Of a DNA stretch of 64,000 nucleotides, positions 37,188-63,291 are shown piece by piece. The stretch spans positions 2,108,001-2,172,000 of the forward strand of contig NC_089433.1 of the NCBI RefSeq assembly GCF_026210795.1, given 5' to 3'. The position numbers and the translations under genes are program-made. Source of the stretch: Rhizophagus irregularis (taxonomy: Eukaryota). Numbering within the stretch: position 1 is the first letter of the stretch; every line of letters starts with the position of its first letter. Below the pieces are notes generated by a model. It saw only the letters and a program-made list of their open reading frames with translations. It was not told the origin of the DNA and ran no database searches.

Positions 37188-37234
37188 GTCCATCCCAGAA
37201 ATTTTTTGGGCTAAGAAATTCATTTTGGCATAAT

Positions 37235-41258: not shown

Positions 41259-41618
41259 TTTTATAGTTTGCTATTCTGTATTAAAGCGGGATTTTTTCAT
41301 ATCTGTAAATAGCTATATTAGTTTAGTAAATTTTGTATTTTTTCATGACTGTAAGTGCGATGCAGTAGAATACGAAAGCAAATGTAATTAATAAAAAAAT
41401 AAATATCAATATCACTTGACCGAAGGCGCTAAAGCATAAAACATGAAACATGTTTAAAAAACTCAAAGTACAATCTTTATTATATTTTTGTAAAGTAATA
41501 TGTGAGAAAGAGCCGGCCGGCTAAGTAAAAATGAAAGTAATAAAAGACATTGGAGTAGATCTCGTTTAAAGGGAGGAATCACGCCGGCCTCTAAGCCAAA
41601 TATGGCGGTTCCTTCTCA

Positions 41619-42440
41619 CTACCCCATATTATTTTCGTTATTATTATTTGCGCTACTCGCATTATTATTATCTAAACTAGCAATTTCTTTACTTTCTACC
41701 CATCTCATAATTGACATCATTGTGGTATATTTTGGTTCCCCTTTACCATAATAAAAACTTTCTACAGTACTCTTTCCAATCTTTTCCCCGGTAAGATGTC
41801 GAATTTCACGTCTCACAGTTTCAAGCGCATAGTCATTAGTCTCCCCCACTTCCTTTTCCGAGTCAAAAACTCTCTTAAAACGGTTCCTATTTTTCACAAG
41901 AGATGAATTGGATGAACCGGATGAATTACCGGATAAAGAATTAGCGCTTCCACGTGATCGATTCGAAGCCTCGGATTGGTTCTCACTCAACTGATCAAAT
42001 TCGATCTGAAGTCTTTGGGCAATTGCATAACATTGGATCATTTCATTTCGGAGAGCTTCAATAGAGGCCCTGACCGAATTGAATTCAGATGAAATTTTGC
42101 CAAAATCATTACGGCAGTCTTCTTCAATATTGTTGATCATCGATAAAATGTTCTGCGCCTCAGAGAAGTAGCCAGCATCACGTGAATTGATTTTAGCGAT
42201 TTTTCCAGTAAGTTTCTTATTAAGTTCATTGTTGTTTCTCACAAGCTCCGCAGTGAAGGAAGAATTAACTTCAGAAAGGCGAGTGGAAAATTCATTGGTG
42301 ATTTTAGTATTAATTTCCGCAGTGAGTTTACTGAAGATGTTTTCGATTTCCGGTGTATTATTTTTTGTATTAAGATCATTGACGATTCTAGTGACACGTG
42401 CAGAAAGTCCATCGGAAATTTTTGTTTGAGATTTGACCAC
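41619..42440 (-). CDS. Coiled-coil protein with a possible C-terminal HTH
   Basis: Intact 273-aa ORF; IGKSTVESFYYGKGEPKYTTMMSIMRW. Confidence 0.6.
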   Translation of the reverse strand: MVKSQTKISDGLSARVTRIVNDLNTKNNTPEIENIFSKLTAEINTKITNEFSTRLSEVNSSFTAELVRNNNELNKKLTGKIAKINSRDAGYFSEAQNILSMINNIEEDCRNDFGKISSEFNSVRASIEALRNEMIQCYAIAQRLQIEFDQLSENQSEASNRSRGSANSLSGNSSGSSNSSLVKNRNRFKRVFDSEKEVGETNDYALETVRREIRHLTGEKIGKSTVESFYYGKGEPKYTTMMSIMRWVESKEIASLDNNNASSANNNNENNMG

Positions 42441-44033
42441 ATGGTAGCGATCCCCATGATTAACACTGGACCAATGAACAAAAAAACAGCGGTTAAGGTC
42501 AAAAAAGGCATGACTCCCGAAGAGTTGATCAATGATAAACTGGACATGATTAGGCGTAGTAATTTTATTGAGATTTTATTGGTGGATCAAGTTTTTTAGA
42601 TAATATCGCTTGATTTTTTTAATAGCAATAGTTATCTTGCGTAAATGCGCTGGGAGAAAGGTTTATTTTATACTGTATGCTTACTACGCGTGAAAAGAGA
42701 ATTTAACCCGATTTAATAAAAATTACATTGCTTTATTAATTATTATGTGTATTTGTCATAACTACATTTTTCATAATTACGTTGCTCGTAGATGCCTAAT
42801 TGTTGAAATAACAATACATGACGCGTTAACAGTGTGAAATCGGTATTATGAATACTAATAAAGTACCAAGAAATTTGCTGTTTATTGCTAAGATCATCTA
42901 TTGATATGCTTACCCGCTAGTATTTCTTTTTTCAAATTAATGAGAAAAAAGGTGGCCCCTATTCGTGCTCCATACAAATCTACTAACGATCCGTAAATGG
43001 AAATTTGTTTTATTATGTAGAATGTGGCCAGAGGCATCCCCTTACATTTCATAGGATGAAGATCTGTAAATCGGTAGATTAAGAGGCGCAATTTCCATTC
43101 TTGTCTCATTCTAACAACCGGGACATTGCGTGACACCAATTCAAAGGATCGTAATATATGTATTATGCCAGAACCTTCCGGAAAAAAAGTCAAACATCAT
43201 CATGCATAGCGCCTTAGGCCCGGATTAATTATTTATTGATCTAGACCCACGATCTACTTCCCCATAAATTTGCAAAAATATGACGGTATTTCATGAGATC
43301 TTGGCCCTGGCTTCATTGTTACAAAAATAGCATATATTTTCCATTATTACGAAAATAGCACATCTAAAAATAAAAACACTGCGGAAATAGCATAAACGAA
43401 TTCTTTCTGCGCATTTCAGGTGATCGATCTCACATGACGAAGTTACTCTACTGCGCATAGCATATTCTGCGGATATAATTCACATGAACCAATGACGCCT
43501 TACTGCGGGGCGCCAAAAGATGACGTTTACATGCTATAAGCCACCCACGTTATTCGAAAAAAAGAAAGAAACTATACGGCAATTTAGTCTATGCGAATAT
43601 GCAATTCATCCTAGGGGGAGGTTTTTCTTTCGTATCTTCCATCACGATAATAATAGCCTCTATCACATTCACCATATTCATTATATCCATCGTATCCATT
43701 ATATCCATCATCACATGATGTGGCGTAAAGTTCAGATAATTCTGGAACATCTGGAACATTCGCGATTTTTTTACATAAAAAGGACGACTTCTTACGTGTT
43801 TGTTCCGTGTTTCCTGTCTTCCTGTCTTCCCAACAAAATGAGTGTCGCGACAGAAGGCCTAGAAGAAATACAAATTAAGGTGACCCGGGAAACCAAGCAA
43901 GCCTCATTAATTAATCAGGTATTTTTTTTAGATCGTTTATCAAAAATTGAGTGACGACTACAATACACACAACAATAGGTATTAACGTATATTGAGGAAT
44001 CATTGAAAAAATTGACACCTGAGGAAAAACAAG

Positions 44034-44825
44034 ATGTCGTAACGATCGATCTTTCTGCTTACAAATTGGATAATGTTGTTGTACGTGAAACAATACATGA
44101 TAATTATAACGCTGAGATAATTGGAGAACACATGTTCATTAAAGTAAGTTTAAATTGGTAAACGCGACTTCTTTACTGTAATATAATTTAATTTCGCCGT
44201 TGGTTTATGTAGTATGATAGTAAAAAAAAGGAAAAGATTCATCGCAGATTAGCAAATTCTGCTGAAGCTCATAATCAAAATTGGGATGTAGATGCTAACG
44301 GAATGTGTACAGATAATAATGGTAATGAATTTCTGCCAGATGTCGGCGTGTGGTTCCAAATGCCGACCCAAGCACAACAGACAAGGCCTATTGCTGAACA
44401 ATGTCCCCTCCCAGACGTATGGGTAGAGGTAAATGTATTAAATTTTGCTGGAAAAATATACGATTTAACTTATAAGATTCGGTTTCTATAATAATCAGGT
44501 TTTCTATAATAGAGACCCAGATCGCAGTAGAGCTTTAACTAACATTGCTTTCGTCCAACAACAAAACTTGGGTATTGAATTCATTGGGATTGCCCTCCCT
44601 TATTCAACAAACACTTTCCAGCAAAATCCAAATCCTGGGATAGCTACGACACCTGCAAATCCTCTAGCAAACCAAAACGCAAGACCTTTCATAGCACCGT
44701 ACATTATTCATTGGGACGTGAATAATGTTCCAGTTTACTACAGAATTAATTGGAATGAGCACCTTGTCCTTAGATGTGGTTGGGTCCTTGAGTTTAATAT
44801 CGTTCTTAATGTACTTGCAATGTGA
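44034..44825 (+). pseudogene. Uma2-like PD-(D/E)xK nuclease-fold gene with introns
   Basis: EFLPDVGVWF...PLPDVWVEV motif; GT-AG introns near 44144-44213 and 44429-44498. Confidence 0.55.
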
Positions 44826-45198
44826 TCGTTAATATTATTTTTAAAGCCTTCTATCTTTTTTTCTGATGCTTATATTATTAGAAATGTACTCATTTTATTG
44901 TAAAGTATAAAAAAAAGGTAGTAAAAATCATATGCGCAAATTATGCTAATAAAAATTATACCTAAATCTTAAAAGAACAGTTATGCAATATACGATAGAG
45001 TAAAACAAGTTTGAAATTTCCAATCTAAATTATTATGAAATGTATTGTAATAAATAAATACAACGCATCCCATGATGTCATTGTCGAGCATTCCCAAGCT
45101 CCGTAAATTCTTTATCCGTGACGATATTATCACCAAGACTTTTAAGATGTTGTAAGTGATTTAGGCATATGCAAGAATGCACTTTGGCTTGACACCTA

Positions 45199-46161
45199 CA
45201 GTGCCCGGAAAAAAGTCAGTAACCACGTAAAAAATTAGCAATTAGTTAGTGAAGTTTACCACTAAGTAAACTTTTTTTCATAATAAATAAATCGCCTTTC
45301 ATAGATTAAGTAATATTGTGCGTCATAATGAATTACATTTATCCTAGAATTTTTAAGCTAATTAAATTCAAAATGAATTATATAGTGCAATTTTTATTTG
45401 AAAATTTTGTATTTTTATAATAAATTTTCAATTATAAATAACTGTTAAATTTTTTAGTCTTAATATGTTGTGATTAATTAAGAAAATTTGTTGGCCATGT
45501 TAAAAAACATGGGTCCTTAAAATTTCAGGTTAACTGGATTTATATTCATTAAGTTCGCTTTGTTTAAATGCAAAATTTCGTGATGAATCACGTGATTGAA
45601 GATCATTTCTATTTATTTATAGCTTGTTTGTCGATCATTTATTAAGTAAATTTATGTCTCAATTTTCCCCGTACATTTCAAACTTCTTATTGAAAGAATG
45701 TCAGCAAAATTTAAAAAAAATTTATAGATTTTAAGTGCAAGTTTTATAAAATAACAAAGATAATCAGTAACTAATTACATGATCGATTGTAAAATTTTGA
45801 GCAAACCTTAGTAAGTATGAATCCGATTAATCTTAAATTTTAAAGAACCATGTTTTTTAACATAACCAACAAGTTTGCTTATTCAATTAGAATACTTCAA
45901 GACCAAAAAATTTAATGATTAATTATAACCAAAAATTTTGTTAAAAACACTGAAATATATGGACAAAAATTGTAATAAATAACTCAATATAGATCAAATT
46001 AATACGAAATTTTCAGGATATATATAATTCATTATAATACACAGCTTTACTTATTTCATAAAGAGTAATTTTATTAGTATAAAAAAAAGTTTACTTAATA
46101 GTAAACTTTGTTAATTAATTGCTAATTTTTTAATTGCTTACTGACTTTTTTCTGGGCACTG
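45199..46161. mobile_element. Tc1/mariner-like fold-back MITE
   Basis: TA TSD; TIR CAGTGCCC(G/A)GAAAAAAGTCAGTAA; long imperfect inverted arms. Confidence 0.88.
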
Positions 46162-46831
46162 TACATCTGTCCGTCTATTGTTTTATAGCGTACGAATTCT
46201 ACAGAAAAAACGATCCTACTCCTTGAAGATCGCGGTGATTAGCGTGGAGAATTTCGTTAGCACAGCCTCGGCAAGAATTTTTCTGATATCGTACAAGTGA
46301 TCTGTCCACATGATCGAACTATGATACGATTGCAAACTTAAGTTTTTTGCTTGAAGTGTTGCAGGTAAGACAATATTCTGTTCCATTTTTATACCATTCG
46401 CCATGTAATCCATAATTCCCATGTTTTCCATCACAAATAGGGCATGGTGAGCTCCACGGCTGAGGTGATGCAAAATTATAATTATCAATCCCTCTGAAAC
46501 TATTTCGGAATTTCAAGTATGGGAAGTGCTCTAATTTCAATAGCATTGTGAACAACTAATTTTGTGAGCATGCGAAGCCCTGCGTTATATGATGTTAATA
46601 AAAAATTTTCTAACTACTAGTAATATATATAAGTTCCTCTCCCAATAAAATGTAGCTTTAAAGGATGTTTTATTCAATGCTTTATTTTTACATATAGTTC
46701 ATAGTACTTTTTACATTTTTTACTCTTGATAAATACAATAAAAAAGCTAACTGTTACATTAATAGCAATTATATTAGTAGAAAATCTATTTGTTACAATT
46801 ATTTGTTAATACATTTAACGTTAGGCAGTTT

Positions 46832-48476
46832 TTATGGTTTATCACCAACTGCGACAACTCTTATAATGTGGTTGGCGCCTTTGGGAAATTTAATACCATG
46901 TTCCCATTCCTTTGGGATATCAATAATGGAAGGGACTTTTGGGACGTATAAAATTCCGACTAATTCACACCTATAATCAGCTACTTCGTCACCTTTACTG
47001 TTCAATGCTTCAATAGTGAACCCAAGTGTTGCAAGCCTAATCAGTAGTTGTCGATAACCATGACGTAGGTTCTTGACCGTTAGTTTGATTTCACCTATCT
47101 CGATTGAAACAATTTTCATATCAAGATAACTTGTTGGCCTTCCACGAACGTCCAATTCAAGAACTTCGTAGAATGGTGCCTAAAAAATTATATATAACAA
47201 ACAAGAGTTAGTATATTTTATAACAATTTCAAATTACACTCTCAAAAGTGTATATATAAATACATGATCATTCTCTATGGCTATTTTTGGATCCATGATA
47301 TACGAAGTGATCAACATCACACCCAAGGATCTTGTATTTGCGAGAAATAGACGATTTTCTGACGAACTATGCTCTAATTAGCAAAATTAAGTTAAATTTT
47401 GATTTACTATCAAACTTTAGTCTAAATAAACTTACTCTCTTGATAAGCTTCCCAGACATTGAGAGATTTTTCCGCTCTATTAGCGAGGGCATTGAGATTT
47501 ATAATAAAATTATTGTCTTGAGGTAACGAACGAATATAATTTATTGATTCTTTAAGTTTCATTTTCATATTTATATTCTGTTCAAGAAGTGCAAAAAATT
47601 ATGGTAAATAAGAATCATGTGTAAAAACCATCTCATAATAATTATATTCACTTACATAAATATAGTCTGAAACTTTGTCAGCACGGTATACTTGAACATA
47701 TATCGGAGTTTCAAATTTTGGTTTTTCATTGGAGAGTTTTTTTCGTGGTAAAGAAAGTCGTACAAGACCATTAAGATCTGATATTTCAAACTTAGAAGAG
47801 TATTGGGAACCGCTTATTTTAGCAATTTCAAGCCGAGCGGATGCTTCATAAACGCTTCCAAAGTCAGATCTCATAAGATCCATTTTGTCATCAAGATTTT
47901 TCAGTGCACTATTCAGATCTGCACATATAGTTTAATAAAGGAAAAGGTTATTAGAAGCAATGGATCAAAAAATCAAGTCAGGATAGTTCACTCGCGTTGA
48001 CCAAAATTATTACGGCTCACTTACCAATACCGGGTTGCTCTACGATAACGCGAATGTGTTTTTTGAGCGGGTTTGACAATAAGAAGCAGGAAAGAAAAGC
48101 ACAAGAATAAGTAAGTATTCGGTATTATTGGCGAATATGACAGAAGACGAAAAAAATATTTTATTTTGACTCAAATACCTTGCCCTTTGTCATTAATTCT
48201 CTTAACTAAATTCGCTATTGCTCCAGCCGGTCCGCCAAGAAGATTGTAAGGAGGATTGACAAGCTTTTGTTCGGTCAAGCCGAGGAAGGCAAGACCAGCG
48301 ACTCTGTTATCTTCGATTATCTTGATATCACTAGGCTCAATATCCAAGACTTCTTTATTCTCTTGTAAGAAATCAAGAACCTCCTTCCTCTTCCATTTCA
48401 TAACATTTTCAATTGACGGGAGACTATCTGAAAAAGTACTTGTAGTTGTAACAGGAATACTTGTAACACCAGACAT
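46832..48476 (-). CDS. Multi-exon gene with an N-terminal SAM-like domain
   Basis: VMKWKRKEVLDFLQE...RVAGLAFLGLTEQKL...GGPAGAIANLV; downstream exons 47599-47883 and 46832-47155. Confidence 0.6.
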
Positions 48477-48563
48477 GTTGTACAGTTCAAAAAAGAAATA
48501 ATTTGCTTGAAAGAGTAACACGAATAGAGGATATATTTATGAGAAATCAATTGTCGCACAGAT

Positions 48564-48952
48564 CAGGGACGATGATTTTATGATGTGATAAAACACAAAT
48601 TATTTATGTGCTAAAACAAAATTATGCGATTTAATTTTTTTCAAAAAAACTTCACATTATGTGATATTATTTGACGAAATGTGCATATTATTCGAAAAAA
48701 TGCTTCATCCGTTCATAAAAATGTGAATTTATTTTTGTAATCACGTGGAAATTACAACCATGACATCACAAAATAATTCTGATAACGGCGGAAACTTCAG
48801 AAAAAACTGGTATTTTACTGCGGAATATGCGTTTTTAATATAGGAGGTATAAATTATGCGATATTATGCTGTGATAAAACTAAATTATGCATTATCGCAT
48901 ATATTATTCGTTTTATGTGAAATTATGCAATCACATAAAATCATCGTCCCTG
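48564..48952. mobile_element. hAT-type MITE
   Basis: Perfect 19-bp TIR CAGGGACGATGATTTTATG; 8-bp TSD GCACAGAT. Confidence 0.93.
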
Positions 48953-49276
48953 GCACAGATTGATCTGACTCATCAGTTGATCAGTTACGCAATGACTTCA
49001 TAAAAAAAGTGTTAAACTTTGAGATCGTGACGCGTGTCACAAGTCGTAGTTTTACATATCAGGTGATAAGCGAGAAAAATACTTTATTAATACATGCGAA
49101 AAAAATAAATATCAAAATCTTTCGTCGCACAGAGGTGAGAAAAATAACAATATCTTTCTGCGCATTCAGATGATCGATGCTGGTCGCTTTTTTGAAAACA
49201 TAATTTTATTATATAAGCCACATGCAAACAGGTACTAGCCACATGATGTTAAGTCGTTGTATAAGCCACGTAAAGA

Positions 49277-49690
49277 TTAATCAAGGTTAAAGTCTTTTCG
49301 ATCAATACACTCTTTAAATTTATATATCTTCTGAGGAATCGTAATTTCCGGATTCTCGTCATACCATACTTCAAGAAGATAAATTCCATTAAGCTGACAT
49401 AAGGTTCTTTTTTTCCGATCACGATCAACAATATCTTCGAGTTTTTTGACATCTTTATACCAGCTAGTATTATGAAGCCGATGTTGTGCCCCTTGCACTT
49501 CTAATGCCATTCGATGATGTCGGAAGAAAGCATCAAGTTCTAATCCCCTCATAAAAGATGGTCGGTATTCAACAATGGGTTCCTCTCCAAGCAATACTTG
49601 AGCAATTAGAATACATTTCTCCTGAAATTTACGATTTTTCTTTGATTCCAATTCTTTTTTAAGTTCATCTATATCTTGTTCCAATTTCAC
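49277..49690 (-). CDS. PD-(D/E)xK (Vsr/DUF559-like) endonuclease domain
   Basis: LELDAFF...ALEVQGAQH...RDRKKRTLC...LLEVWY; resembles the integrase C-terminal domain. Confidence 0.7.
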   Translation of the reverse strand: MKLEQDIDELKKELESKKNRKFQEKCILIAQVLLGEEPIVEYRPSFMRGLELDAFFRHHRMALEVQGAQHRLHNTSWYKDVKKLEDIVDRDRKKRTLCQLNGIYLLEVWYDENPEITIPQKIYKFKECIDRKDFNLD

Positions 49691-49844
49691 AACTCTTAAA
49701 AAAATATGTGTTTTTGGGCGAACCGAGTTCGCTGAAATTTGCCAAGAAAATTTTTTATTATTACATGCAAAAAAATAAATACAAAGGTTCGGGACGTAGC
49801 CCGGGATACATGACTAAATTCTATCCTATGACCCGCACGCAAAA

Positions 49845-50473
49845 TCATTCCTTAATAAATTTTTTCGTCCTTGCTCTCTTACTATCCGGAGAATCATCAA
49901 CTTCGACCCTATCCTTCAACAAGCCAACGATTACCCCCATAACCTTTTTAACACCACGGCGAAGTTCCGCATCATCTTTCATTATTTTCTCGTTAAGTGC
50001 TATGTGATAGTCGTCTTTCGAGCAATAGATCCTTTCCGGTGTGTACATGAGGAAGTACCAGTCAGAGGCTAAAACAAAAAAGGCACAAGTTAGTATATAC
50101 GAATGATGGATAAAAAAATCACACAAAGGACTGAAAATCTCTACCCGTAGTCACGATCCCATAGAGATAGTCAAACTCATCATCGAATGCCACGGATGCT
50201 TTCCTTTTTCTCGTGTTTGTATGGTGAGAGCTTTCGAGTTGCATTATGTTCTGCATGAATCCCGCCACCAAATCCTTTTGTTTTCCCTCGGTTATGGCTA
50301 TCAACTCCTCATTGACGACATCTATGACTTTCTTGATTGCGTAATCGACTCGGCCAGATGCTTCTTCGCCTACGACTTCGAACTGAAGTAAAATATAAAA
50401 TTTTATTAAAATTTTAAAAATCTCAAGAAGAAAAAGAAGAGAATTATAATAGTTTCTTTAAAGCGAGGTTTTC

Positions 50474-50508
<35 letters not shown>

Positions 50509-51099
50509 GTCCATGGTAATTCCTTTCTTAGTGATTCTTTTGGCGATATAGATGGATGCATATAATATTGGGGAAATATACTCGCAACGCACAGCCTCAT
50601 TCCTACCAGTTGCAGAACCTATAATTCCCATCCTACGTTTTATCTCTGTTATACACTGCTCCAGCTCCTCGTCTTCATCGTCAATTTCCACAGGCTCTGG
50701 CTCAAAGGGCGGAATTTTTGTTATTTCATTGCTATCGATCCCATACTTGCGCAACACCTCACTCAACTCTTTCTTAGTCTTGTACGAGGAGAACGACCTC
50801 AGCTTTTTCTCCTTGCACTCCCTAGCGAAGTCTACGAGAGCAGTTGCAGGTCCCAATTTCATTCCATGACGCTCAAGCTCTTCTTTGGTTATCTTGAAGA
50901 AGGTACGGCCATTAACCTCTTCATTTTCTAATATTTTAAGAGCTGACTCGCTAAGTCCTAAGTCCTCCTGACCCTTCAGAAACTCTATAAGCTTGGCCGT
51001 GTCATATTTTTTAATTTCGTCCGCGAGCGAGACCGTCTCATTTCCAGCAACAGTAGTAGAGGTGGAAGCTGGAGTATAAGGTGTACTAGTTTCAGACAT
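49845..51099 (-). pseudogene. SAM domain plus Crinkler-type C-terminal nuclease-fold gene, disrupted by a poly(A) insert
   Basis: IKKYDTAKLIEFL...EEVNGRTFFKITKEEL...GMKLGPA; GRVDYAI, ITEGKQ, YGIVTTGRD/WYFL; intron at ~50069-50140. Confidence 0.7.
50387..50505 (+). mobile_element. Short retroposed insert ending in A28
   Basis: ~120-bp AT-rich segment with a poly(A) run at 50478-50505, splitting the codons of ...TMDP|QFEVVG. Confidence 0.7.
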
Positions 51100-51357
51100 A
51101 GTGCTTTTATAGGGATATTTGGCTCGGTAAAAAATAGTGTTACGTCCGGAGGAAAATAGAGTTTTATTTCTAGTGGGAACGCAGGTGTTAGTATAGGTTT
51201 TTATGTAGCACAGGCATTACATCATTACACGTGACCGGGCTCTCATGTACATTCAATAAAATAATAATCCTTTATTTATAAAATAAATCGTTGCCGGAAG
51301 TCGGCCTACAATACATAAAAACTATTACATAGCATGACGTAAATAAAAAAATTCTAA

Positions 51358-51795
51358 TTATTTGTGTGGCACTGTTTCAGTAGGAGGATACACGATAACA
51401 TTGATTCCCTTTTCACCGGAATAGATACGTTGGGGCTGAATGGGAAAATGAATAAAAATTCTATCTTGCGGTTCCATTTCTACTGACCCATCTACTATGA
51501 ATACGTTGTTGTTTCTTAAGGTGTTGATTATAACGCTATCGGCTACAAACCCAACCTTATATAAGGCCAAACTGGTCGAATCAATATCTTGAAATCGATC
51601 TAGACGATGGTTTCTGATTGCCTCCGCAAGAGAAGAAACTCGATTGTTATTGGCATTAGATATTGTTACTTCGAAGATATCGTTCACCCCCTCACCAGGA
51701 ATGAAACAATTAAGAATAATGTCTCCGCCGGCGAGAAACTTTTCAAGCTTGTCAGAAGTCTTGGACTTATCGGGTACTTCAGCCTTATCAGACAT
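51358..51795 (-). CDS. Crinkler (CRN) N-terminal ubiquitin-like domain protein
   Basis: ILNCFIPGE...FEVTI...VSSLAEAI...SLALYKV...INVIVYPP (LxLFLAK- and HVLVxxP-like motifs). Confidence 0.7.
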   Translation of the reverse strand: MSDKAEVPDKSKTSDKLEKFLAGGDIILNCFIPGEGVNDIFEVTISNANNNRVSSLAEAIRNHRLDRFQDIDSTSLALYKVGFVADSVIINTLRNNNVFIVDGSVEMEPQDRIFIHFPIQPQRIYSGEKGINVIVYPPTETVPHK

Positions 51796-52506
51796 CTTGC
51801 TTTCCTAAATACAAGGCCCATGGTGAGAAAAAACTCGCTCCCATTCATAACTGGTCCCAGAGGGACCCTCTCTGGCATATACATACCTTATTTTGCGTTA
51901 TTTTACGGGAATGTTTTTTGCGGAAAGTTGGCTGAACTTCCACATACCTCTACATGCTTTATATCTTGCTGGGAAAAAGAGCGCCAAGCCGAAGTTAAGG
52001 AGGTATGAGGCGTAATTAGTATTGTCGTCTGATGCCAAGAGTTCTATGAAAGCACATGCAAATGAAATCTTCAAACCCTTTCACATGGAGATCTACCGGA
52101 AAGACATAGTTGCTCTTACGCCTGGCGATCTCGGAATTGCGTGTCCCTCAGCCTTTCATAACATATGCTTTTATCGTCACTATTTACTTTTAGAGTTGGT
52201 CCTGTGTTGCATGTAGACCTCCTTTCAAGCGAAGCGCCTGTGAAGCAGGCCATTTTTCTCATGATTGTTCAGGAAAAAATAAAGAATAAAGGTTAATATG
52301 TTTTTTCGATATATATGCAAAAATTATTATGTCGCACAAGACCTGTCTGGTGATCCACTTATTTTTCTGTCGCACAGGAGTGGCCCAGCAAATTCTTCCG
52401 AGCTGATGATCACTATCCCGGGTTGACGATCAGTATTCCGGACTCGGCCATAGGCACCTTCGGTAAAATTTTCCACATTAAATATATTACTTTACTATTA
52501 ACAATC

Positions 52507-53142
52507 ATGATGAATAACAATACTAATAAATCTCCTATGAAAGAATCTCTTGATCAATTATATGAAGTATTTTTATATAAGAAGAAGGATATAATAGCTA
52601 TTCAGAAAAAGCTTGGTATTAATATCAATGCAAATCAAGAGGCAGTGCGTCAAAGCAAGGAAGAGATAACACTTGCCGATTCATATGAGTTGTTGTTAGA
52701 CTTGGTGGGAGATATGTTACCAATACAGGAGGAACTCAACATCGAAGGCAATCCCATTCTAGAGGTGGAACTTAGGAGTTATAAAGCTTCTACGGATATT
52801 TCATATAGAGAAATATATAATTTGCTTTTATACCTGGAAGAGGATATAATAACAATTCAGGATGAACTCAGTATTATTGGTTATTCTAATCAAGAAAGGG
52901 CAGAAGAAGTCGATGAAAAAGCAAGAGCATATCTCCAAAAGTTTGAGGAATTCCACGGTCCATCAGAAGATGTTCCAATTGTGATTTTACAGAAATATGG
53001 TGAAATGGGGGTAAATAAAATTCGGTTTACTGGAGAGGGGCATCCGCTATTTCCAAATCTCTCTCCTCAACAATTACACGAAATTTTTGTAAAAAATTCA
53101 ACTAGCACCGGACAGTGCCCATGTCTAGAACAGGTTAGCTAA
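52507..53142 (+). CDS. Hypothetical acidic helical protein with internal repeats
   Basis: Three LY..L..L..DI..IQ.EL.I-like repeats in an intact ORF. Confidence 0.6.
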   Translation: MMNNNTNKSPMKESLDQLYEVFLYKKKDIIAIQKKLGININANQEAVRQSKEEITLADSYELLLDLVGDMLPIQEELNIEGNPILEVELRSYKASTDISYREIYNLLLYLEEDIITIQDELSIIGYSNQERAEEVDEKARAYLQKFEEFHGPSEDVPIVILQKYGEMGVNKIRFTGEGHPLFPNLSPQQLHEIFVKNSTSTGQCPCLEQVS

Positions 53143-53200
53143 TCTATATTTTTTGTCGTACAGAAGCACTGTACATGCATGTGGCTCAGCAAAAATCTAA

Positions 53201-54111
53201 TTAATGATCATCGCTCCGGACTATTGATCTAGCCAACCCTGGATCGGAATACCACTGCAAGTTACCTCGACCTAAAAGATTCTGAAGACTCCGAGCTAAA
53301 ATCTGTCTACTAGCAACGTTGTTCTGTGTAAGATGATTTCTAACTAGTCCAATGAGATCAGGAGGCGTTAAAGTTTCCATAAAATTCTCTACATGGATAT
53401 TTGGATTAAGAGAAATGAGCTGATCTACGGCTTCTTTGCTAATATAAATACACCCTTCCAAATTGAGATACTTTATGTTAAGACAAGATCTAGCAATTTC
53501 TTTGATAGTTATATCAGTAATTTCACAAAAGCCAAGGTAGAGATGCTGGAGCCTTGGGCAGGAACGAATAATATTGCAAATTGATTGTTCGGAAAATTCT
53601 GTATGGTTAGAGATATTTAGATATTCTAGTTTGTGGCATAATTCTGCGATTGCAGTTAGACCTATATCATTTTTCCCCGTAATCCCCATAAAGTGGATAT
53701 ATTGAGATACTTCAAATTTGGGTATGATTTCGCTATTAGCTTTAGAGTTTTACCAATACAGTCCGTACTTCCTTCAAAATCTAAATGAATTATATTTTGG
53801 AAAGTATGCACAATGCCTTTGATTTTTTTATTTGAAAGTGAATAGTAGTGTGTTATTTTAAGATGGGTTAGTTTTGAGCTATAAACTGGTTTTCTTCCTC
53901 CTCCGGGTACTATTTTTAAAAATCTTTCTAATCGAGTTCGATCTTCTTCTTCCCATCCTTTTAGCTCAATACGCCTCCATAGGATAGGGGCACCACATCT
54001 GTACCAAAGCCGGCTAACAAATAGAGCAGGGTATAGTGACTTATCTATTGCTAAGAAATATAGAATTCGCTCTAATAGTTCCGGTAAATTAAAAATGCTT
54101 GAATGCGCCAT
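53201..54111 (-). pseudogene. F-box / leucine-rich-repeat protein (frameshifted)
   Basis: IFNLPELLERILYFL...VSRLWYRCGAPILW; LRRs [16 protein letters not shown] and [12 protein letters not shown]. Confidence 0.8.
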
Positions 54112-54190
54112 AAATATTCTATTTTATATGTTGTATCTTAAACGAAAAAATAAAATTACGCATATTGATGATCACTACTTCGGATAATCG

Positions 54191-54578
54191 TTATTCTACA
54201 TGGGTTCATACTTTGAATGGGATCGCAAAATTATCGTCTAATAATAGTTTTGAATTGCATATATCCAAAATTGCACCATTTTCTCGAAACTAAGACCCTC
54301 CTAAAATTAAATCAGGTCCCGGCCAATCTGGTCCAACAACTATGAATTCACTGGGTGTGCTTTTATGTTTCTCACCATCATTAAAGCCGATATGCAGATT
54401 AACTTTTCCTATTATGGAATAGGTTGCATCCAGAGTTTTAATGCTATTATTTTCATCATGATATGCAATTCCTAATTCACCAATATGTTTTTTGGCTAAT
54501 GCAATTTACATTGGCGCATGTATCAATTGATGCCTGGGTGGGACTATTTTCTTCGACTACACAATTCACGAATACCAT
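54191..54578 (-). pseudogene. Second stand-alone retropepsin-like protease (absent from the ORF track)
   Basis: Manual translation: MVFVNCVVEENSPTQASIDTCANVNCISQK /fs/ HIGELGI...IIGKVNLHI...EFIVVGPDWPGPDLILGGS*FRENGAILDICNSKL. Confidence 0.7.
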
Positions 54579-54653
54579 TTTTATTATAGCATATATAATA
54601 TCCAAATATAAAAAATAAATTTCTATCACTGCGGACTGGCATTTATCGGATAG

Positions 54654-55407
54654 CTAATTAGCCTTATTTTTTATTATATGCATTTTCTCCTGATCTTTCT
54701 TTTGGGCTAGGCGCTTCCTAATTCTTTGATGCTTAATCATGTTTACTATCTCATCAATATCAGAATCGGATGAACTGGATTCGGATGAACTACTCTCGGA
54801 TGACGAACTATATTCAGATGAACTAGTCTCGGATGAGCTTGATTTAGATGAACTACTCTCAGATGAAGTAGACTTGGGCGGGATATTGGTTAAGGCTGTT
54901 AGATGCTTTTGATCACTTTCCATTTTGATTATTTATATGCTAAACTTAATAACTTTGACTGAAAAAATATGCAAAGTGCCTGATTCGACCCACTTCAAAC
55001 TACAATCTGCTTAACCTTTCTCGGTCGTGCCTTCCTTCGTTGCTTATGAGGGATATCCTCGCTCTTTCTTAACACAGCGCCTCTTGACCCTTTTTTCCAA
55101 TAAGCGAGAGAACTATTTCATGAATTAAGTCGACCACAGTTTCCCTATCCACACATTCATCCAGATCTTCCACTACATATTCGTCCAGATTTTCCAATTC
55201 ATCTTCTAAGGATCCTACATCTCTTTCCAGTCTTTTTGCCGACTTTTTATACTCGGAATAGTAGTTATCCATTTTTTCATCCAGTGCCCCCATCTTTTCA
55301 GAAAGCGCATTATCCATATCTGCAATCCGCTTAGCAATTTTCTCATATCTGGACACTTCCTGCTCAATGGGTGCACTATCGGATGAGTGGTTTTGGTCGG
55401 TTACCAT
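54654..55407 (-). CDS. Two small tandem ORFs (acidic coiled coil 55069-55407; Ser-rich/basic 54654-54923)
   Basis: ATG-started ORFs, each preceded by a TATA-like box. Confidence 0.5.
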
Positions 55408-55532
55408 TTTTACAATACTTTATATATGCTATATCTTGCCTGGGCGAAAAAATAAAATTAATAAATGATACCAGGGTTACCGAAGGTAACGCTCTCCCGA
55501 TCCTAATCATCTAACCCGTTTACAGTATGTGA

Positions 55533-56664
55533 TTAGTTTTCGTCAAAGAACTCGAATGCTTTTGCCTAATCATAAGGTACCCCACGGGGCCTGTAATTGA
55601 CTATAGTATAGTTTTTTGCAGGGGAGACATGGTTGTCTGCACTGTGGCGAAGTGCTTCACTGCCTCTGATAAATTCTTTGAACCATACAATACAACTGCA
55701 AATACCGCCCCTAATTTGCGCAAAGAACTAGGGAGTAGCGGTTTACCTATTTCAGGGAGAAATTCATCCTTTTTTAGGAATGTATTGAACCATAATATGC
55801 CTGGCTTTCCTGGGTCTCGTAACTGTCCAGAAGAAATTGCTTCCTGAATCCATATAAGCAATTGCTTCGCCCGTTCCTCATTCTTCTCTAGTGATCTAAA
55901 TACTCGAGGAATGTCTTGTTGATCTCGATTTTTCCCATACCCAGTTACGTTTCCATTGAATATGTAAGCAAGTCTTTAATTTCGCCAGGGCGAATACAAA
56001 GCATTATCATTACATCGGCTAGGGCTTGTTTATCGGGTATATTTGACACAACATATGAATCCAGTCTTTCCTTAACCGATTCTAATGAGAAGTGGTCTGG
56101 ATAATAGATCCCTTCATTCTCACGTAACAATCTATTCTCCTTTTGAATTTTATTAGCCGAACAAGTTATGTCTGGAATAAATGTAGCCGAGATAATTTTT
56201 TTTGAGGCTCCGAGGGCTTTCAGTTCTCTTCGAAGTCTAGTGAGGCGTGATAGGCCAGCGCTGGCATTAGAGGCCGTTCCAGATAAGGCCTTGGCTATAA
56301 CTTCTACCTCTTTTTCGCTAATATTATCTCGGATAATACGCTCGGCCAAATCTCTAATAGTCTCTTTCGGTGAAATTTGACACACATTCACTGTTCCCTC
56401 TTCTGGTTCTATTTCCTGAGTGGTATCAGGAGTATTGGAAATGGCTCCTTCTTTTTTCCGATCAGCCGTCTGCTTAGGAATTAATGCAAATACCTGTTTT
56501 TCGCTAAAGTTGTATCCTTTCTTGAAACGACGTCGTGCCTGATCCCTCTTAGTTTTATCCGTCAAAAGGATCTCTAACGCCAGTGCGTGTCGACTGAGCT
56601 CTTCGATACTCATCTCGTTATTGAGCTCGTTTTCTGTTACATATCTAGTAGCGATGCCAGCCAT
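55533..56664 (-). pseudogene. Tyrosine-recombinase-fold enzyme, protelomerase/telomere-resolvase-like (two frameshifts)
   Basis: Reconstructed catalytic order: CIRPGEI (R), VTGYGKNR (K), PSSLRKLGA (R), EALRH (H), SPAKNY (Y). Confidence 0.7.
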
Positions 56665-56955
56665 GTTATTATTTGGTAATATGTAGGATATTTGGTTATA
56701 CCTAGGTTGTTTGGTATATACTATGCGGAGAAAGTTCAATTCGAAAAAATAAATAATTGTTCTGACATCCATGGTCGGTGGGCAAAAAGAATATTATAAC
56801 TTATTGCGGGCTCTCTATGAGGTCACAAGCTCCGGCCAGAATATCTTTTATATATATTTGAAAATTGTGGGTAGATATGATATGCGAAAAATATATATAG
56901 TCAAGGAACCGCCATTCCAAGACTATAAACAAATCCATCTGTATCTAATAACATT

Positions 56956-57473
56956 TTAATAAAATGCTCGCGCTAGAGCTAATATTCCTTCCGGTCCTAA
57001 AGCATTTGTCTTAGTGAACGCATCATATAAAGCACTTGGTCTATGCTTCGAAGAAGCTAAATTCGGATGATGGAGGAATTTCATGAGTACCTTATTTCTC
57101 CAAGCTTTCGTTTCTTCATGCCTCCAGCATAATTTTAATAGTTGGCATAAGGTGAGATTGTGCCAATTAGCTTTGAGCAAGATTTGCAATAGACTTATTT
57201 TTCGTTAACTATTGCTAGTAAACTTCTTTCTGATACGATATCCCAAATACGATAGGAAATGAAAGAAAGATATCTTCTTAATATTGGCAATTCATGTAAA
57301 GGCGGGATCAAAAGCCTTTCTTCTCTCCAATGTATATAGCCTTCGAGTAGCAATTTATGATATACTGACCTATTTATAACTACTATGTGATTAGATTTGG
57401 GGTTGTAGATGTTTTTGCGAATCCCATCTGCCGATTGGTCTAATATGTCTATAGCGTTAGTATGAAAAGTCAT
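56956..57473 (-). pseudogene. Hypothetical protein in two pieces
   Basis: Adjacent ORFs 57195-57473 and 56956-57189. Confidence 0.4.
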
Positions 57474-57567
57474 TTATGACTTAACTTAATACCGAATAAT
57501 TTAAATATACATTTTATTATCAAATTAAAAGTGAAAAGGGTTTTATATCCTAAAATACTTACTGTAC

Positions 57568-57843
57568 ATGGATCGAGTTACTTGCCCGTATATTAAGAGA
57601 GATGGTTCCATTTGTGGGAAAATCTGTACTCGTACTACTGGCTGTACGAAGCACTGGATATTACATGAAAAAAATATGGAAAAAAGACCTTACCTTGTTT
57701 GTGGCATACCTACCATTTCCATTACAGAATGCTGTCCCAAACATTCGGCTAGATTTCATTCGCTAAATTATCGGATGAGGCAGAAGTATGGGGTTGGGAC
57801 TCTTCAATCCGGAAAGGTCTCTGAATTATCTACTGAGGAGTGA
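57568..57843 (+). CDS. Small Cys/His-rich (zinc-binding) protein
   Basis: CPY...CGKIC...GCTKH and VCG...CCPKH. Confidence 0.55.
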   Translation: MDRVTCPYIKRDGSICGKICTRTTGCTKHWILHEKNMEKRPYLVCGIPTISITECCPKHSARFHSLNYRMRQKYGVGTLQSGKVSELSTEE

Positions 57844-57929
57844 GAAAAAATATATTATTCCATTCATTAGTTGATTATTATTGGAGTGGCGCAAGGGTAG
57901 AGGCATTTTTTATTAATGTATGCCGATAG

Positions 57930-57978
57930 ATGAAGCCTTCTGCGGAATTATATTATATAAAAATGGCAGAAGGCTTCA
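57930..57978. promoter_or_regulatory. Internal copy of the TIR palindromic unit (candidate origin or binding site)
   Basis: 49 bp identical to 61713-61761: TGAAGCCTTCTGC-[22-bp AT-rich spacer]-GCAGAAGGCTTCA. Confidence 0.6.
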
Positions 57979-58004
57979 CCTACCTGATTCATAATCGAAT
58001 AGTA

Positions 58005-61000
58005 TTAGCAAATATCAAATAAGTCCTGAATATCTTCTGTAATTTGCGCATTATCCACTTTGCTAGAACTAGTAAAATTATCTATTAATTCATCGGGCGG
58101 GAGTTTACTATATCCATATCGAGTATTTTCCCCATTTTCCCAATAAATTTCTTCACCCGTTTGATATAAAGGAAATCTAGGAGCGTCTTTACTATCGAAT
58201 GAACCTACTAGGTGATAATGTCTACGATTCTTATCTATAGCCTTAAATTTCAACCCATAAGTTACATGTAGTGCTGAGTTCAGTAAACCAAGTTTTGCCT
58301 GTTCCGTTTTTAATCCCGATTTTTTAGCTCTGCGAGATGTATCTGAATTATCAAAAACCCGAGCCATTTTTGGTACTAAATTCTGGAGATATGATACCGA
58401 CTCAGGAGAATTCAGGCATGTTTTAACATCATCAGCTTTATATCTTGATCTATTGTCGATATCTTTAGCTGGTGTACAAGTTTTTAACAATTCTAAGCAA
58501 ATCCGATGCTTCTCAGCCCGGGTTATAGTTGTAAGCCTATCTTCTCTGTAATCTTTGCGAGTGATAGCCTCAACAGCCGTTTCATTACTAGTGCCAACAT
58601 CTCGTAATTGCCTATAAGCTCTAAACCATTTCATATGATTGAAATTCCCATATTTTGAGATGAAATCCTCGGTCAACGATTCAGGCGGAATTCCATAACA
58701 ATCCACAATATGGTGCCGATCTAAAGAACGCATTTCTCCTAAAGTCTTTCTTGGCTTATTTTCTAGAAATTCAGCAGTCTCACGATCAAGAATATTAGCA
58801 TTAGTTATATCTGATATCTCCTTCGTTTTAACAACAGAACATTTTGCTTTTACTATCTGCGACAATGAATTTTCATTAGATTTAGGGTCGGATTCTATGA
58901 TGGAAATTATCATACCTGCCTCTCTAAAAAAATCAACCATTCTCCAACCAAATAAGCGCCAGGAACGAAATTTTTCTAACATATATGCTACCCATAATCG
59001 AATGGTTGGTACATCCTTATTCCGGATGATAGAGTCTATGTTAGGAAATATTCCTCTATTCTGAAGTTCTCGGGAAGACATTCTCGTTTGGCATTCAACA
59101 ACCATTGGAATAACCCTTTCTCTGTAATGGGAATATTAGACGATCTTTACTCGATATGACATACATAATCCTTAATACATCGCATGCGGAATAGCATCTG
59201 ATTCGTTCCGGTGTTTGTTTCTATGTAGCTATTAAAGAGACAGAATGCCCGTTCAAACTTAGGATTAATGCAAGATACCCCTATTTTTAGAGTGCTAGTA
59301 TATGCAACAAGGTCTACATCGATCCATGATTCTTCTACATTGCTAAAATCTTGAGCCTTTTCTACTGGATCAGATTTACCATGATATTCCTTGATTCGCA
59401 ATTCTGGAAAATCGGTCTTAAGGGCACGAACAATCCCTTGTACATCTTTTCTAAGATGGCAGATAAGTGAAGCACTTTTCCGATTCTCAAAAGGTAGTGA
59501 AGATATTTGCCTAGCCCAATCCCAAAGTTCGGCTAACACAGTTTCTTTATTAAGAGCCAAGCGGAATGTCTTATTTTTTTGAGGCTGGTAAGTATTATGA
59601 ATAATAGAAAAAGATATATTCTTACGAAGGGCCTTAATCCATTCAATGTTGAGGTCCGTTAGGTCATTATCCATAACAATAATGCGCCTAGCCTTTTGGA
59701 TTAATTTATACAATTTTTCTATTGATTGTCCCGCCAGCTGACTTTGTGCTTGAGCAATTATTGATACTATTTCATCAAGCCATAAATCATATTGGCTCAG
59801 AGGGCATTTACATTTTTTACTGCATTCGCATTTATTAGTAATACGGTGTAAGCTCTCTATCTGACATACTACCCTTTTGTGATCGGGTAGATTTATATTA
59901 CCATCAATATCGCAATATGACTTAAGATTAAGTCTGGTAGTAACAGCATTCGAGTAAGAGTGGCGCGTGGATAATACTAGCAAATTCACGTCATCAGATA
60001 TAGTAAGATGCTCTAGAATATATGTTTTCCCCGTCTCCCAAGGTGAACCTACATAGATATCGCCTTCATTCAGTAATGGTCTTACATATCTCTCCTCATA
60101 TGTTTCTGTTGCTGAAAGGGACTCATTATACTTGACCCAAGATGGCATTTTTATGAAAGCTTTAGGGAAACCTGGACCCTTTATCCTGTGAGATGTGGGA
60201 GATAAAATTTTATTTTCTTGCTGAATTTTTTCTGCAATAGATGGGTCGCATTCAAAAACTTCCCCGCACTCATCACTATTTTGCCGAAAGCATTTTACGA
60301 TGAACCTCCCACTGCTAGCACATACACGACTGAACCACCGCTGATCCTTGTCATGTATACGTTTACATAGTGGGCATTCTAGTAGAACTTTTCGGTTAAA
60401 ATATACGAAGTTTTCTGAATCTTTTTCTTTGATAGTCCAATCCCTAAGATAGTTAGAATGCTTTTGCAAAACTAGGTCCGCGCATTTTTGCAATACATCC
60501 TGACCCACAGATATTCTTAGCGGATTATTATTTTTTTCTGTGCTAAGCATTCGAGGTCTTACTTTAAGTCCTAAGCTAGTAGGTGGTTGAACCCTAGCGT
60601 GGTCGAGCTCATTCCACCCATTATTTAGTGAGAATTGAAGAATACGCTTTACACGACCTTTTTTTGCTGAACCAATAAGGCGAAGGTTAAAGTTTTGACC
60701 AGGTAATATTCTATCAATATACTTGCCGAATTTTTCACCAGTTATGGTATACACTAATTCAGTAAATGCTTTGAGTTCGTGATGATCAATAAGAAGAGCC
60801 GGTGCGTATAAAATATGGTAGCTATACTTGCTAGGGTCCGATGATGTAGCGATTACTAATCCATTGAGAATATCCTCCCAGCTACAATCAAGAATTCGAT
60901 ACAAAGCTCTTATGAAAGATAGGCAGATTCGAAAGAATACTTCTTGCACCTTAACACCAGTTGCTTCCATATCTTCTTGCGAAGCATCTATGTCAATCAC

Positions 61001-61573
61001 GGCTCTTAAAGGTTTTTGACCATTAATACATTCATGGATCCCAGGTAAACCATAAACTTCAGAAATGTCATCGGCAACGGAAAATTTTGGGGCATGATCG
61101 GCATCTTGGTCGATTTTTATAACCAATTTATTTTCCACTTCACTTCGGTCATAGGCATTATACAAGCTAGAGCCTTTTTCATTCGGAAATAAGAATGAAT
61201 AGATTGGGAGGCAATCCAATGACCCTTTGTCATTCGACATATCTCTAGGTGGTGATGAGAGAATTTCCCGAATGGCATTTAGCAAATCCTTAGGGGAAAA
61301 TTTATCATTGAAGTTTTCTTGCCTCAAAGTATATGTCACATTAACCTTTCGTTCTTTCACAGCTTCGGTAGTGCTGGTTGAAGCGCAGGAAGCTTCTTCA
61401 TTATCGGACTCATAATTAGACTCGTAGTTATTATAATCATCTGATCCGCAATCAGAATCATTATCATTATCATTATAGCTATCTGAGTCACTTAAGTATT
61501 CACCGGGGCCAGCGCCGTCATAGCGGGCGAGAGTTCCTCGAACAGTTTGGTCGGAAATAGATGAGGTATGCAT
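58005..61573 (-). pseudogene. AEP primase + Zn finger + UL9 (herpes origin-binding protein)-like SF2 helicase fusion
   Basis: HECI...RAVIDIDA, KYSYHI, NLRLIGSAK, CPLCKRIH; SPWETGKT, LVLSTRHSYS, CQIESLHRI, LDEIVSIIAQ, IIVMD, YTSTLKIGVS, QMLFRMR. One stop at 59147 and one frameshift at ~59072. Confidence 0.88.
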
Positions 61574-63286
61574 GTCGTCAGTAAGTAAAACTTTATATAC
61601 TCCAATATATTTCCGAAATGTTTAATTAATTTTTTCGTCCTTCGAAAAAAGAGGCGATAGCGAACTTATTAAGCAAGACGTAAAAGAAAGACACTCAGAT
61701 GTATCTGAAAAAATGAAGCCTTCTGCGGAATTATATTATATAAAAATGGCAGAAGGCTTCATCTTCCTAGGTAGACAGCTAGTCTGCAGATACGAGGTAA
61801 CTTCGGAAGTGCTTAGGGATATGTACCCAGGTAAGATATGACATCTAGGGTAAGCAAGTGCGCAAAATAATGGCAGAAGACTTATCCTTCCTAGATATGT
61901 ACCCGGGTATGATATGATATCTAGGGTAGGCAAGTGCGCAAAATATTGACAGAAGACTTATTTTATGATATGAAGACTTCTTTGAACCTAATTTTTCTAG
62001 ATATGTGGTCAGGTATTACCCTAAAAAGTGAAGCCTTCTGCGTAATTATTATATAAATATTGGCAGAAGCCCCATCTTCCTAGATATGTACTCAGATATG
62101 GTATAGCCTCTGCGTAATTTATTATATAAAAATGGCAGAAGGGTACACTTTTCTAGATATGTACTTGGGTATGGAAGGCCTGGTCAGAATCAATATATAC
62201 CGCCTATACCGGCAATCGAAATTGGCATACATGTACTGGCAACAAATAGGCAACTGATATGTATCAACAAGTGAAGGTAACTCTGTAATCATTATATAAA
62301 ATATTGGGAGAAGCCTTCATCTTTCTAGACAAGCAAATCGCGAATAAACATATTCCTAATAGGTGATATTTAGGGTATTCTTCTGCGTAATCATTATATA
62401 AAATATTAGAAGAAGAATACCCTATCACTAGCCCGCTAGAATTACATACCATAGTGCCGGCCAAATTTAACCGATTTTTTATCTATGGCTGATCAAGTAA
62501 CTTATGTGAGGGTGTTCCGGTGCCGAACAGTATCACGTGACCGGCGCAGTAAGGCGCAGTATAAAATCGGCCAGCACTATTTCACAATTTTGGCCAGATC
62601 TTTGGGCATAATATTTCGGCATCCAAGCTGGCCTGAAACTAATGAACTAATAGAAGCACTCAGATTCCCTGCCAGTTCCATGACAGTTCCAGGAGAGTTC
62701 TGGGCACTACCAGGTTACTATCATAGTGCCAACTTAGATCATGTGTCCCAAAGATCGGCCAGAAATTATACACTGCGCCACCTGACATGATATTTTTTTA
62801 CCATATTTCAGCATTTTGATGGATAACAAAATAGGTGAAGAAGGAAGCACTCTCGAATCCTTAACAGGAACCAAGAGAGGCGCAGAATGGCAAAAACTTC
62901 ATCATAAAACTTAGAATCCAAATAATTGCAGACAAACCAGACCTCCAACATAGAATTCAACAACCAATCAACCATAGAATCCCAATATCATAAATTATAT
63001 TAGAAAATGATTATTGATGCATAGAACTAAATAAAAATAGGTATATTTTGATTATTTAGATTATTTAAATTATTTAGTCATAACTAGGCAACAGTTTAAC
63101 AATAACTAAGTAACATTATTTTAGATTATTACCTAGTCATAGCTAGGGAACAGTTTCAACTAATAACTAAGTAACATTATTTTAGATTATTACCTACTTA
63201 TTGTTAGACTGTTACCTACTTAAATAACCTAATCTAAGCCGTTTATTACTAAATAATATAATTATATTATTTAGTAATAAACGGCT
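61507..63286 (-). repeat. Right terminal inverted repeat (1780 bp)
   Basis: Mirrors 21288-22496 plus 25484-26043. Confidence 0.95.
63237..63286. repeat. Perfect 50-bp terminal palindrome (right)
   Basis: Same sequence as 21288-21337; directly abuts the TSD. Confidence 0.98.
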
Positions 63287-63291
63287 ACCCT

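Follow-up and report, generated by a model that had tools for sequence, protein, structure and literature searches.

The question raised by this locus is whether a broken fungal gene belongs to the telomere resolvases, and whether the palindromes at the ends of the element around it are the sites of such an enzyme. The locus was analysed within a 64-kb stretch of Rhizophagus irregularis DNA, which is called the window in the following. Protelomerases such as TelN, TelK and ResT possess an R-K-R-H-Y catalytic set with a G-x-x-K-x-R motif shortly after the first Arg. Telomere resolvases act as dimers, cut with a 6-nt stagger and form hairpins. We consider it probable that the gene is a decayed member of a predicted hairpin-telomere-resolvase family, located in a 42-kb integrase-mobilised element which likely replicates as hairpin-ended linear DNA.

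The gene and its decay

A preliminary description had placed the gene on the stretch given in Table 1, and there it is indeed found, from ATG to TAA on the minus strand, together with all four protein motifs that were quoted. An intact homologue of 380 amino acids from R. irregularis (P0002, cluster of GLOIN_2v1765707) covers the entire gene in three frames with identities of 93%, 95% and 95% (tblastn), so that the intact product is somewhat longer than the approximately 370 amino acids first proposed. The window copy comprises 1132 nt as compared to 1143 nt expected. Three breaks are directly observed. Near 55968 the frame is shifted by a net +2 nt, between 55662 and 55661 a stretch of 13 nt is missing (with the near-identical locus L065 as reference), and an in-frame TAG is found at 55568-55566. 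Both frameshifts that had been proposed are real, but the first had been placed at about 55958 and the premature stop codon had gone unmentioned. Because of these three breaks the gene is a pseudogene. All five catalytic codons are nevertheless retained in the window copy, spread over the three frames. Sequencing error is an unlikely cause of the breaks, since one of them is a 13-nt deletion and since the DNA polymerase (PolB) and helicase genes of the same element carry stops too.

Anatomy of the element

The element is flanked on both sides by the 5-bp duplication ACCCT and encodes an integrase that is assigned to the rve type by Pfam (PF00665), which agrees with the target-site duplication and the DDE integrase of the preliminary description. 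If the nested transposon is set aside, the inverted repeats are 1.77 kb long and identical at 1733 of 1767 aligned bases (98.1%). The PolB and helicase genes both start within these repeats and are both oriented inward, which implies one duplicated promoter driving both replication genes into the element. The first approximately 22 codons are common to PolB (25977-26043) and helicase (61507-61573). As both genes carry stops, the element has to be regarded as decaying; in a related metagenome locus (L042) the helicase frame is stop-free over 888 codons.

Table 1. Position of the features discussed in the text, in window coordinates.
Feature	Position	Strand	Remarks
Whole mobile element	21288..63286		42.0 kb, nested transposon (3 kb) included; ends 5'-AG...CT-3'
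Target-site duplication, left	21283..21287	+	ACCCT (5 bp)
Target-site duplication, right	63287..63291	+	ACCCT (5 bp)
Left terminal palindrome	21288..21337		perfect, 50 bp, centre TAA|TTA; flush with target duplication
Right terminal palindrome	63237..63286		perfect, 50 bp, identical to left; flush with target duplication
Left terminal inverted repeat	21288..26043 (21288-22496 + 25484-26043)	+	split by nested transposon; contains PolB gene start
Right terminal inverted repeat	61507..63286	-	contains primase-helicase gene start
Nested transposon	22497..25475	+	8-bp duplication AGGAAGAT; later insertion into left repeat
RNA-primed family B DNA polymerase (PolB), asfarvirus-like	25977..29657	+	PF03104, PF00136; two in-frame stops
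Decayed Gag-like / zinc-knuckle / aspartic-protease-like frame	32230..35415	-	PF03732 E 5.9e-4, PF00098 E 0.0015, both under cut-off
Retroviral-type (rve) DDE integrase	35538..37187	+	PF00665 E 1.7e-8, above cut-off; open frame
A32-like packaging ATPase	37235..37987	+	PF04665 E 2.8e-10
Telomere-resolvase-like pseudogene	55533..56664	-	ATG at 56664, TAA at 55533; 380 codons when intact
Catalytic codons of the window copy	R225 55992; K244 55933; R315 55720; H344 55646; Y356 55610	-
Replication protein, UL9/CyRepA1-like helicase	58005..61573	-	PF02399 E 7e-17; NF042913 E 4.7e-33; one in-frame stop

PolB matches PF00136/PF03104 and TIGR00592, and its best matches among solved structures are RNA-primed enzymes, first of all 8ywg (E 1.9e-97), which we take to be the African swine fever virus polymerase. 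In Pfam the protein-primed PolB family gave no match. The N-terminal region of the helicase protein is read as a primase on account of its motifs, not of a library match.

In the element frames scanned against Pfam and PHROGs, several of which are unassigned (38835-39767, 41619-42575, 43979-44825 and 52423-53142), neither a double jelly-roll major capsid protein nor a minor capsid protein or cysteine protease was found. A Holliday-junction resolvase was not found among the scanned frames either, and the Pfam scan found no second recombinase in the element. The Gag-like frame might take the place of the capsid and protease that are missing, or be what remains of a retroelement. Its origin from an inserted LTR retrotransposon was considered and rejected, as long direct repeats were not found at its flanks. 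This frame lies beside the rve integrase without LTRs and without reverse transcriptase; L042 (7084-7845) also has a retropepsin-like frame.

Predicted fold

Sequence libraries do not recognize the resolvase-like family. Pfam, NCBIfam and PHROGs gave no match, and neither did HMM searches of solved structures; the Crypton, DIRS and Starship recombinase families gave no Pfam match either. PF16684 matches neither P0002 nor 35 aligned members nor 11 distant members. In the ESM Atlas P0002 is found near ResT-TelK_cat clusters at 0.94 with 142-143 of 256 features, which is fewer than in typical same-family matches, while the distant member P0301 reaches 0.98 with 197 of 256 features. No phage relative of P0301 was found by tblastn, and no relatives were found in IMG/VR when it was scanned with the resolvase-like family, the ATPase of the element and a cyanobacterial protelomerase.

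A first full-length model, made from 35 close sequences, had a pLDDT of 66, placed TelA level with Cre and was uninformative in Foldseek searches against PDB and BFVD. A second model comprises residues 108-390 of an intact homologue (L003, 64% identical to P0002) and is based on an alignment of 72 sequences; its pLDDT is 91.7 and its pTM 0.85. Foldseek gave five matches to this model at E<=0.001, every one of them TelA. In a comparison with 48,161 solved chains a Z of at least 8 was reached by four chains only, all of which are telomere resolvases. TelA gave Z values of 14.4 (258 residues, rmsd 4.5) and 14.0, TelK 13.2 (254 residues, rmsd 4.7) and the catalytic domain of ResT 8.8, as compared to 7.5-7.8 for lambda Int, 7.0-7.4 for Cre, 5.9 for human Top1 and 5.4 for variola topoisomerase.

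The match to TelA (13% identity, rmsd 4.4-4.7) takes in the N-terminal bundle, the linker helix and the catalytic domain, with residues 1-275 of the model on TelA 129-417. A helix of P0002 (164-183) lies within the stretches aligned to TelA 129-218 and 129-417 and corresponds to the long interdomain linker. According to the available text of the TelA study this linker carries hairpin-forming residues (PMC3558466). The fold comparison which the preliminary description had called for therefore ranks Cre, XerA/H, lambda-type integrases and topoisomerase IB, for the model of a homologue, clearly below the telomere resolvases. The family of the window gene is thus predicted to be closer to TelA, TelK and ResT than to the recombinases.

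Catalytic residues

The R-K-R-H-Y set is found in register with R275/K300/R383/H416/Y425 of TelK. In the hhalign comparison to nine annotated or TelN-like protelomerases (E 6.6e-4, probability 27%) it is R225, K244, R315, H344 and Y356 that fall on these conserved residues; with narrower alignments the probability was 0.5% (fungal sequences only) and 10% (another alignment). HMMs of the family scored only marginally against the nine protelomerases, Cre and lambda Int (best score 6.4 bits) and therefore discriminate little.

Among the 72 rows of the alignment R225 is kept in 64, K244 in 70, R315 in 64, H344 in 56 and Y356 in 63. Most departures are gaps or changes from Arg to Cys or His, which would fit decay. 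Gln in place of the catalytic His is found in a Rhizophagus subclade (P0339-P0346, P0351; 8 of 72 rows), in which Tyr is kept.

The position three residues before the second Arg is described in the available text of two studies as His in recombinases, Lys in TelK (K380) and Tyr in TelA (Y363) and ResT (PMC3558466, PMC11317167). In the fungal family it is Ser in 37 rows, Lys in 18, Arg in 11, Asn in 5 and Phe in 1, and the window copy has Ser. None of the 72 rows has His at this position, and the His-x-x-Arg of integrase-type tyrosine recombinases is accordingly absent from all of them. The family agrees with TelA and TelK in predicted fold and catalytic residues but misses PF16684 and is atypical at the third catalytic position, and we therefore prefer to regard it as a new, distant family of the resolvase type.

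Terminal palindromes

The 50-bp palindrome on which the preliminary description was built is perfect and present in two copies, one per element end. Other perfect palindromes of at least 18 bp do not occur in the 64-kb window, and the longest palindrome in 100 locally shuffled windows measured 28 bp as opposed to the 50 bp observed. One strand folds into a 25-bp stem with -20.8 kcal/mol (DNA folding), and the length of 50 bp falls within the range of known resolvase sites, which is 42-92 bp. By their sequence the terminal palindromes may be read as replicated-telomere sites and as the substrate of the resolvase. Between the resolvase gene and the nearest palindrome there are 6.6 kb, whereas in phages the site is no more than a few hundred bases away from the gene.

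Contigs from five of six public runs show at least four outer flanks, besides the two of the window, that join the right end at 63286-63289, and the inner sequence of these contigs diverges approximately 16 bp inside the palindrome. The palindromic end therefore recurs at other insertions and is a trait of the element family. These contigs cover the right palindromic end only and do not link it to the resolvase gene; both together on the same element are seen in the element of this window only. At the right end the contigs of the six runs show no strand-change joint, and neither a fold-back read nor a hairpin molecule was seen. Contig depth over the palindrome is high but does not amount to a copy number. 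A search of IMG/VR with a 16-nt arm gave 47 matches, which are read as chance because every one is single.

Distribution in Glomeromycota

At E<=0.001 a search with the first open piece of the gene gave 365 proteins out of 1330 candidates. Among the 120 matches listed, all that bear an organism name belong to Glomeromycota, and the named hosts are Rhizophagus, Glomus, Gigaspora, Dentiscutata, Diversispora, Entrophospora and Cetraspora. Of 1.84 billion representatives searched with a profile, 545 matched at E<=0.001, with several distant members among the 150 listed. The gene is also found at 80 metagenome loci, at 14 of them in a single frame and stop-free over the match and broken at the other 66.

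Flanks of at least 500 bp are available for 45 of these loci; in 30 they match other sequence of the element and in 15 they do not. As a control, the host part of the window was matched by 3 of the 80 loci. L042 encodes an open helicase frame followed by an intact resolvase copy, in the same order as in the window, and in a Cetraspora gene model the end of the helicase is fused to a resolvase-like gene. As far as these sequences go, the resolvase-like gene is a standing part of the element family with conserved neighbours. The F-box/leucine-rich repeat gene of the element is a repeated neighbour in related loci as well.

Probable link to asfarvirus-like viruses

The distant members matched one of 185,579 representative genomes of prokaryotes, namely an 8.8-kb contig of 70% GC in a bin (G001) which is labelled Elusimicrobiota. 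The family member encoded there is 32% identical to P0002. The same bin contains a PolB which is 46% identical to that of the element, a capsid protein with B646L (E 1e-127) and 5j7o as best solved matches, that is, of the ASFV/faustovirus type, and a weak helicase match (25%), and it lacks an rve integrase. The genes for the resolvase-family protein, PolB and capsid are located on separate, unjoined contigs of 68-75% GC (L139, L140 and L142, the asfarvirus-like contigs of the bin), whose four-letter word use is similar (r 0.91-0.97, compared without a control set). An unrooted tree of 19 selected sequences separates 12 fungal-type from 7 distant rows with full support.

The three contigs are likely those of a mis-binned asfarvirus-like virus, and a virus of this kind is the likely source of PolB and resolvase. 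We regard the origin of both element genes from an asfarvirus-like giant virus as somewhat more probable than not. At its start (30-125) L139 has nested palindromic 32-bp repeats, among them a 39-bp palindrome (62-100) whose centre is 1 nt long, possibly a candidate target site, possibly ordinary viral repeats.

A possible replication and integration cycle

An RNA-primed polymerase cannot finish open linear ends, and in N15 and Borrelia this problem is solved by hairpin ends and a resolvase. As the PolB of the element is not protein-primed, its linear ends need another solution than protein priming. The steps set out here are inferred. The free element would carry a 25-bp hairpin stem at each end. 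RNA-primed PolB and the helicase would copy through the hairpins and produce 50-bp palindromic junctions, which a resolvase dimer would cut near the axis and reseal as hairpins; this is the step in which we have the most confidence.

For integration, which we favour only slightly in this form, the rve integrase would nick the returning strand at ...GGCT, at a distance of 25 nt beyond the tip, and the CT-3'OH would be joined to the target with a 5-bp stagger, whereupon fill-in would unfold the hairpin. The integrase might alternatively cut an unresolved junction at the same place with the same product. A nick after GGCT, a 5-bp stagger and fill-in by the host would leave a full palindrome flush with a 5-bp duplication, as it is found at both ends.

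Since the integrated ends equal replicated telomeres by sequence, the resolvase could also release the element. It would then act on the two integrated palindromes and set free the element in its hairpin form, leaving hairpin-capped chromosome ends. This step is tentative and falls a little short of an even chance. It would break the chromosome, and a fungus with many nuclei per cytoplasm might tolerate such a break.

Other readings of the locus

The strongest competing reading accepts a true resolvase and restricts it to extrachromosomal replication, the element leaving the chromosome by recombination between its inverted repeats or by the integrase. It differs from our preferred explanation in the release step only, its probability is contained in that of the latter, and we consider it a real but clearly lesser possibility. 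The chromosome break that cutting of both palindromes would cause speaks for it, and so do the phaeoviruses, which according to the available text excise by a separate recombinase and linearise by the resolvase (PMC13236599). On the other hand the integrated ends are complete substrates by sequence, and a second recombinase was not found in the element.

It is unlikely that the protein is an ordinary site-specific recombinase or topoisomerase which serves circularisation of the element or resolution of dimers, with the palindromes as its binding or recombination sites. The matches of Cre and lambda Int to the homologue model (Z 7-8) and the atypical third catalytic position would fit such an enzyme, and ResT-type enzymes can carry out fusion reactions. 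These points have to be weighed against a Z gap of about 6 to TelA and TelK across the whole three-part architecture and against the missing His-x-x-Arg. Moreover, lox/dif-type sites possess an asymmetric spacer, which is missing from the palindrome, and integration is already explained by the rve integrase and the 5-bp duplication.

Slightly less probable still is a resolvase without any role, inherited as cargo with the giant-virus PolB, with palindromes made by the integrase or by another hairpin route such as junction resolution of the pox/ASFV type: the 66 broken copies out of 80, the distance of the gene from the palindromes and the abundance of cargo in the element are in its favour, but the position beside the helicase is conserved across genera, the catalytic residues are kept across deep fungal clades, no Holliday-junction resolvase was found among the scanned frames, and the palindrome of the element is perfect, whereas the terminal loops of pox viruses and ASFV are mismatched.

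Comparison with known systems

With a hairpin telomere resolvase as the preferred reading, the closest systems are TelA from Agrobacterium (4dwp), TelK from phage phiKO2 (2v6e), TelN from N15 and ResT from Borrelia (8vs5). Common to these and the fungal family are the three-part predicted fold, R-K-R-H-Y in register, the G-x-x-K-x-R motif and, on the replicon that carries the gene, a perfect palindrome of comparable length. In contrast to them the fungal proteins show only 10-16% identity and are not detected by PF16684, have Ser, Lys, Arg or Asn at the third catalytic position, lack a C-terminal extension of the stirrup type and possess an extra N-terminal domain of 60 residues. The host is a eukaryotic nucleus, and the sites are found at both ends of the element and not beside the gene.

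Maverick/Polinton elements are mentioned from Glomus and Rhizophagus in the available text of two sources (PMC7805220; bioRxiv 10.64898/2026.06.19.733378), and Oliveira et al. include Maverick among their curated orders, the available text giving no detail. With these elements the one described here shares the rve integrase, the A32 ATPase, long inverted repeats, AG...CT ends and a short target duplication. Mavericks have AG...CT ends and usually a target duplication of 6 bp, as compared to 5 bp here. Unlike a Maverick the element has an RNA-primed, asfarvirus-like PolB, a separate helicase gene, the resolvase and the terminal palindromes, and a Gag/aspartic-protease-like frame is found instead of a capsid and a cysteine protease. 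It is therefore not filed as a Maverick, as its PolB is not protein-primed and no capsid was found.

Integrating elements known to carry a resolvase are PAST and the phaeoviruses, both of which, from the available texts, differ in design. In the cyanobacterial PAST (bioRxiv 10.1101/2024.11.13.623437) a telomere resolvase likewise accompanies a DDE transposase on the same mobile element; PAST is one-ended, Tn7-like and located at host telomeres, and the available text describes no polymerase, whereas the fungal element is two-ended, internal and self-synthesising. Endogenous giant viruses of the phaeovirus type (PMC13236599) are, in the available text, likewise integrated eukaryotic DNA with a telomere resolvase and a telRL-like palindrome. 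These are giant viruses that integrate via a circle by a tyrosine recombinase and have one internal site, as opposed to the two terminal sites of the fungal element.

According to Zhao et al., each R. irregularis genome contains 15-33 asfarvirus-like polB copies at scattered positions, which they read as signs of giant-virus infection; the available main text uses none of the words 'integrase', 'recombinase', 'polinton' and 'inverted repeat' and gives no element context (PMC10640383). These copies are probably the same PolB genes as that of the element. In the literature searched we found neither a combination of a resolvase with a polinton/Maverick-type element in fungi, where supplements or Repbase may list the element without the resolvase, nor a description of hairpin-ended linear replication for a eukaryotic transposon-like element.

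Implications

Mavericks solve the replication of their ends by protein priming, and the element appears to use hairpin telomeres instead. The family would then be one of telomere resolvases native to fungal nuclei. If true, the reading would also explain why dozens of asfarvirus-like polB genes are scattered through genomes of mycorrhizal fungi, and it predicts chromosome breaks and palindrome scars in the host genomes.

The element could belong to a new self-synthesising eukaryotic class, in which a replication module derived from a giant virus (RNA-primed PolB, helicase and resolvase) is combined with a Maverick-type integrase and the cycle alternates between hairpin-ended linear and integrated forms, with the resolvase serving as excisionase and the integrase working next to the hairpin ends. 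We put this forward as a suggestion with slightly less than even prospects. If it holds, some asfarvirus-like giant viruses use a telomere resolvase.

The family could also yield a new pair of enzyme and site for the production of closed linear DNA, and the ends of the element are a ready substrate for a one-tube activity test. To our knowledge these fungi lack stable transformation, and a native mobile replicon therefore matters.

Cargo and other inserted elements

The element carries host-like cargo, namely a Crinkler N-terminal domain, an F-box with leucine-rich repeats, a SAM-like domain and a Myb/SANT domain (jointly at 51358-51804, 53201-54123, 50476-51099 and 40436-40813). Two endonuclease-like domains are similar to each other, one at 49277-49813 with PHROG homing/HNH matches and the other at the C-terminus of the integrase (35538-37187).

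The nested transposon (22497-25475) is presumably hAT-like, as judged by its motifs, and holds a 279-bp palindromic MITE at 24729-25007 with CACTG ends and the 3-bp duplication ACT. Two further inverted-repeat elements with CAGTG/CACT-type ends are located at 45197-46163, nested within the large element, and at 14972-16328, the latter with an AT-rich 11-bp satellite. Outside the element, at 3850-5583, a CACTA-type transposase (PF02992) is encoded, a relative of which adjoins the resolvase gene in another locus (L078).
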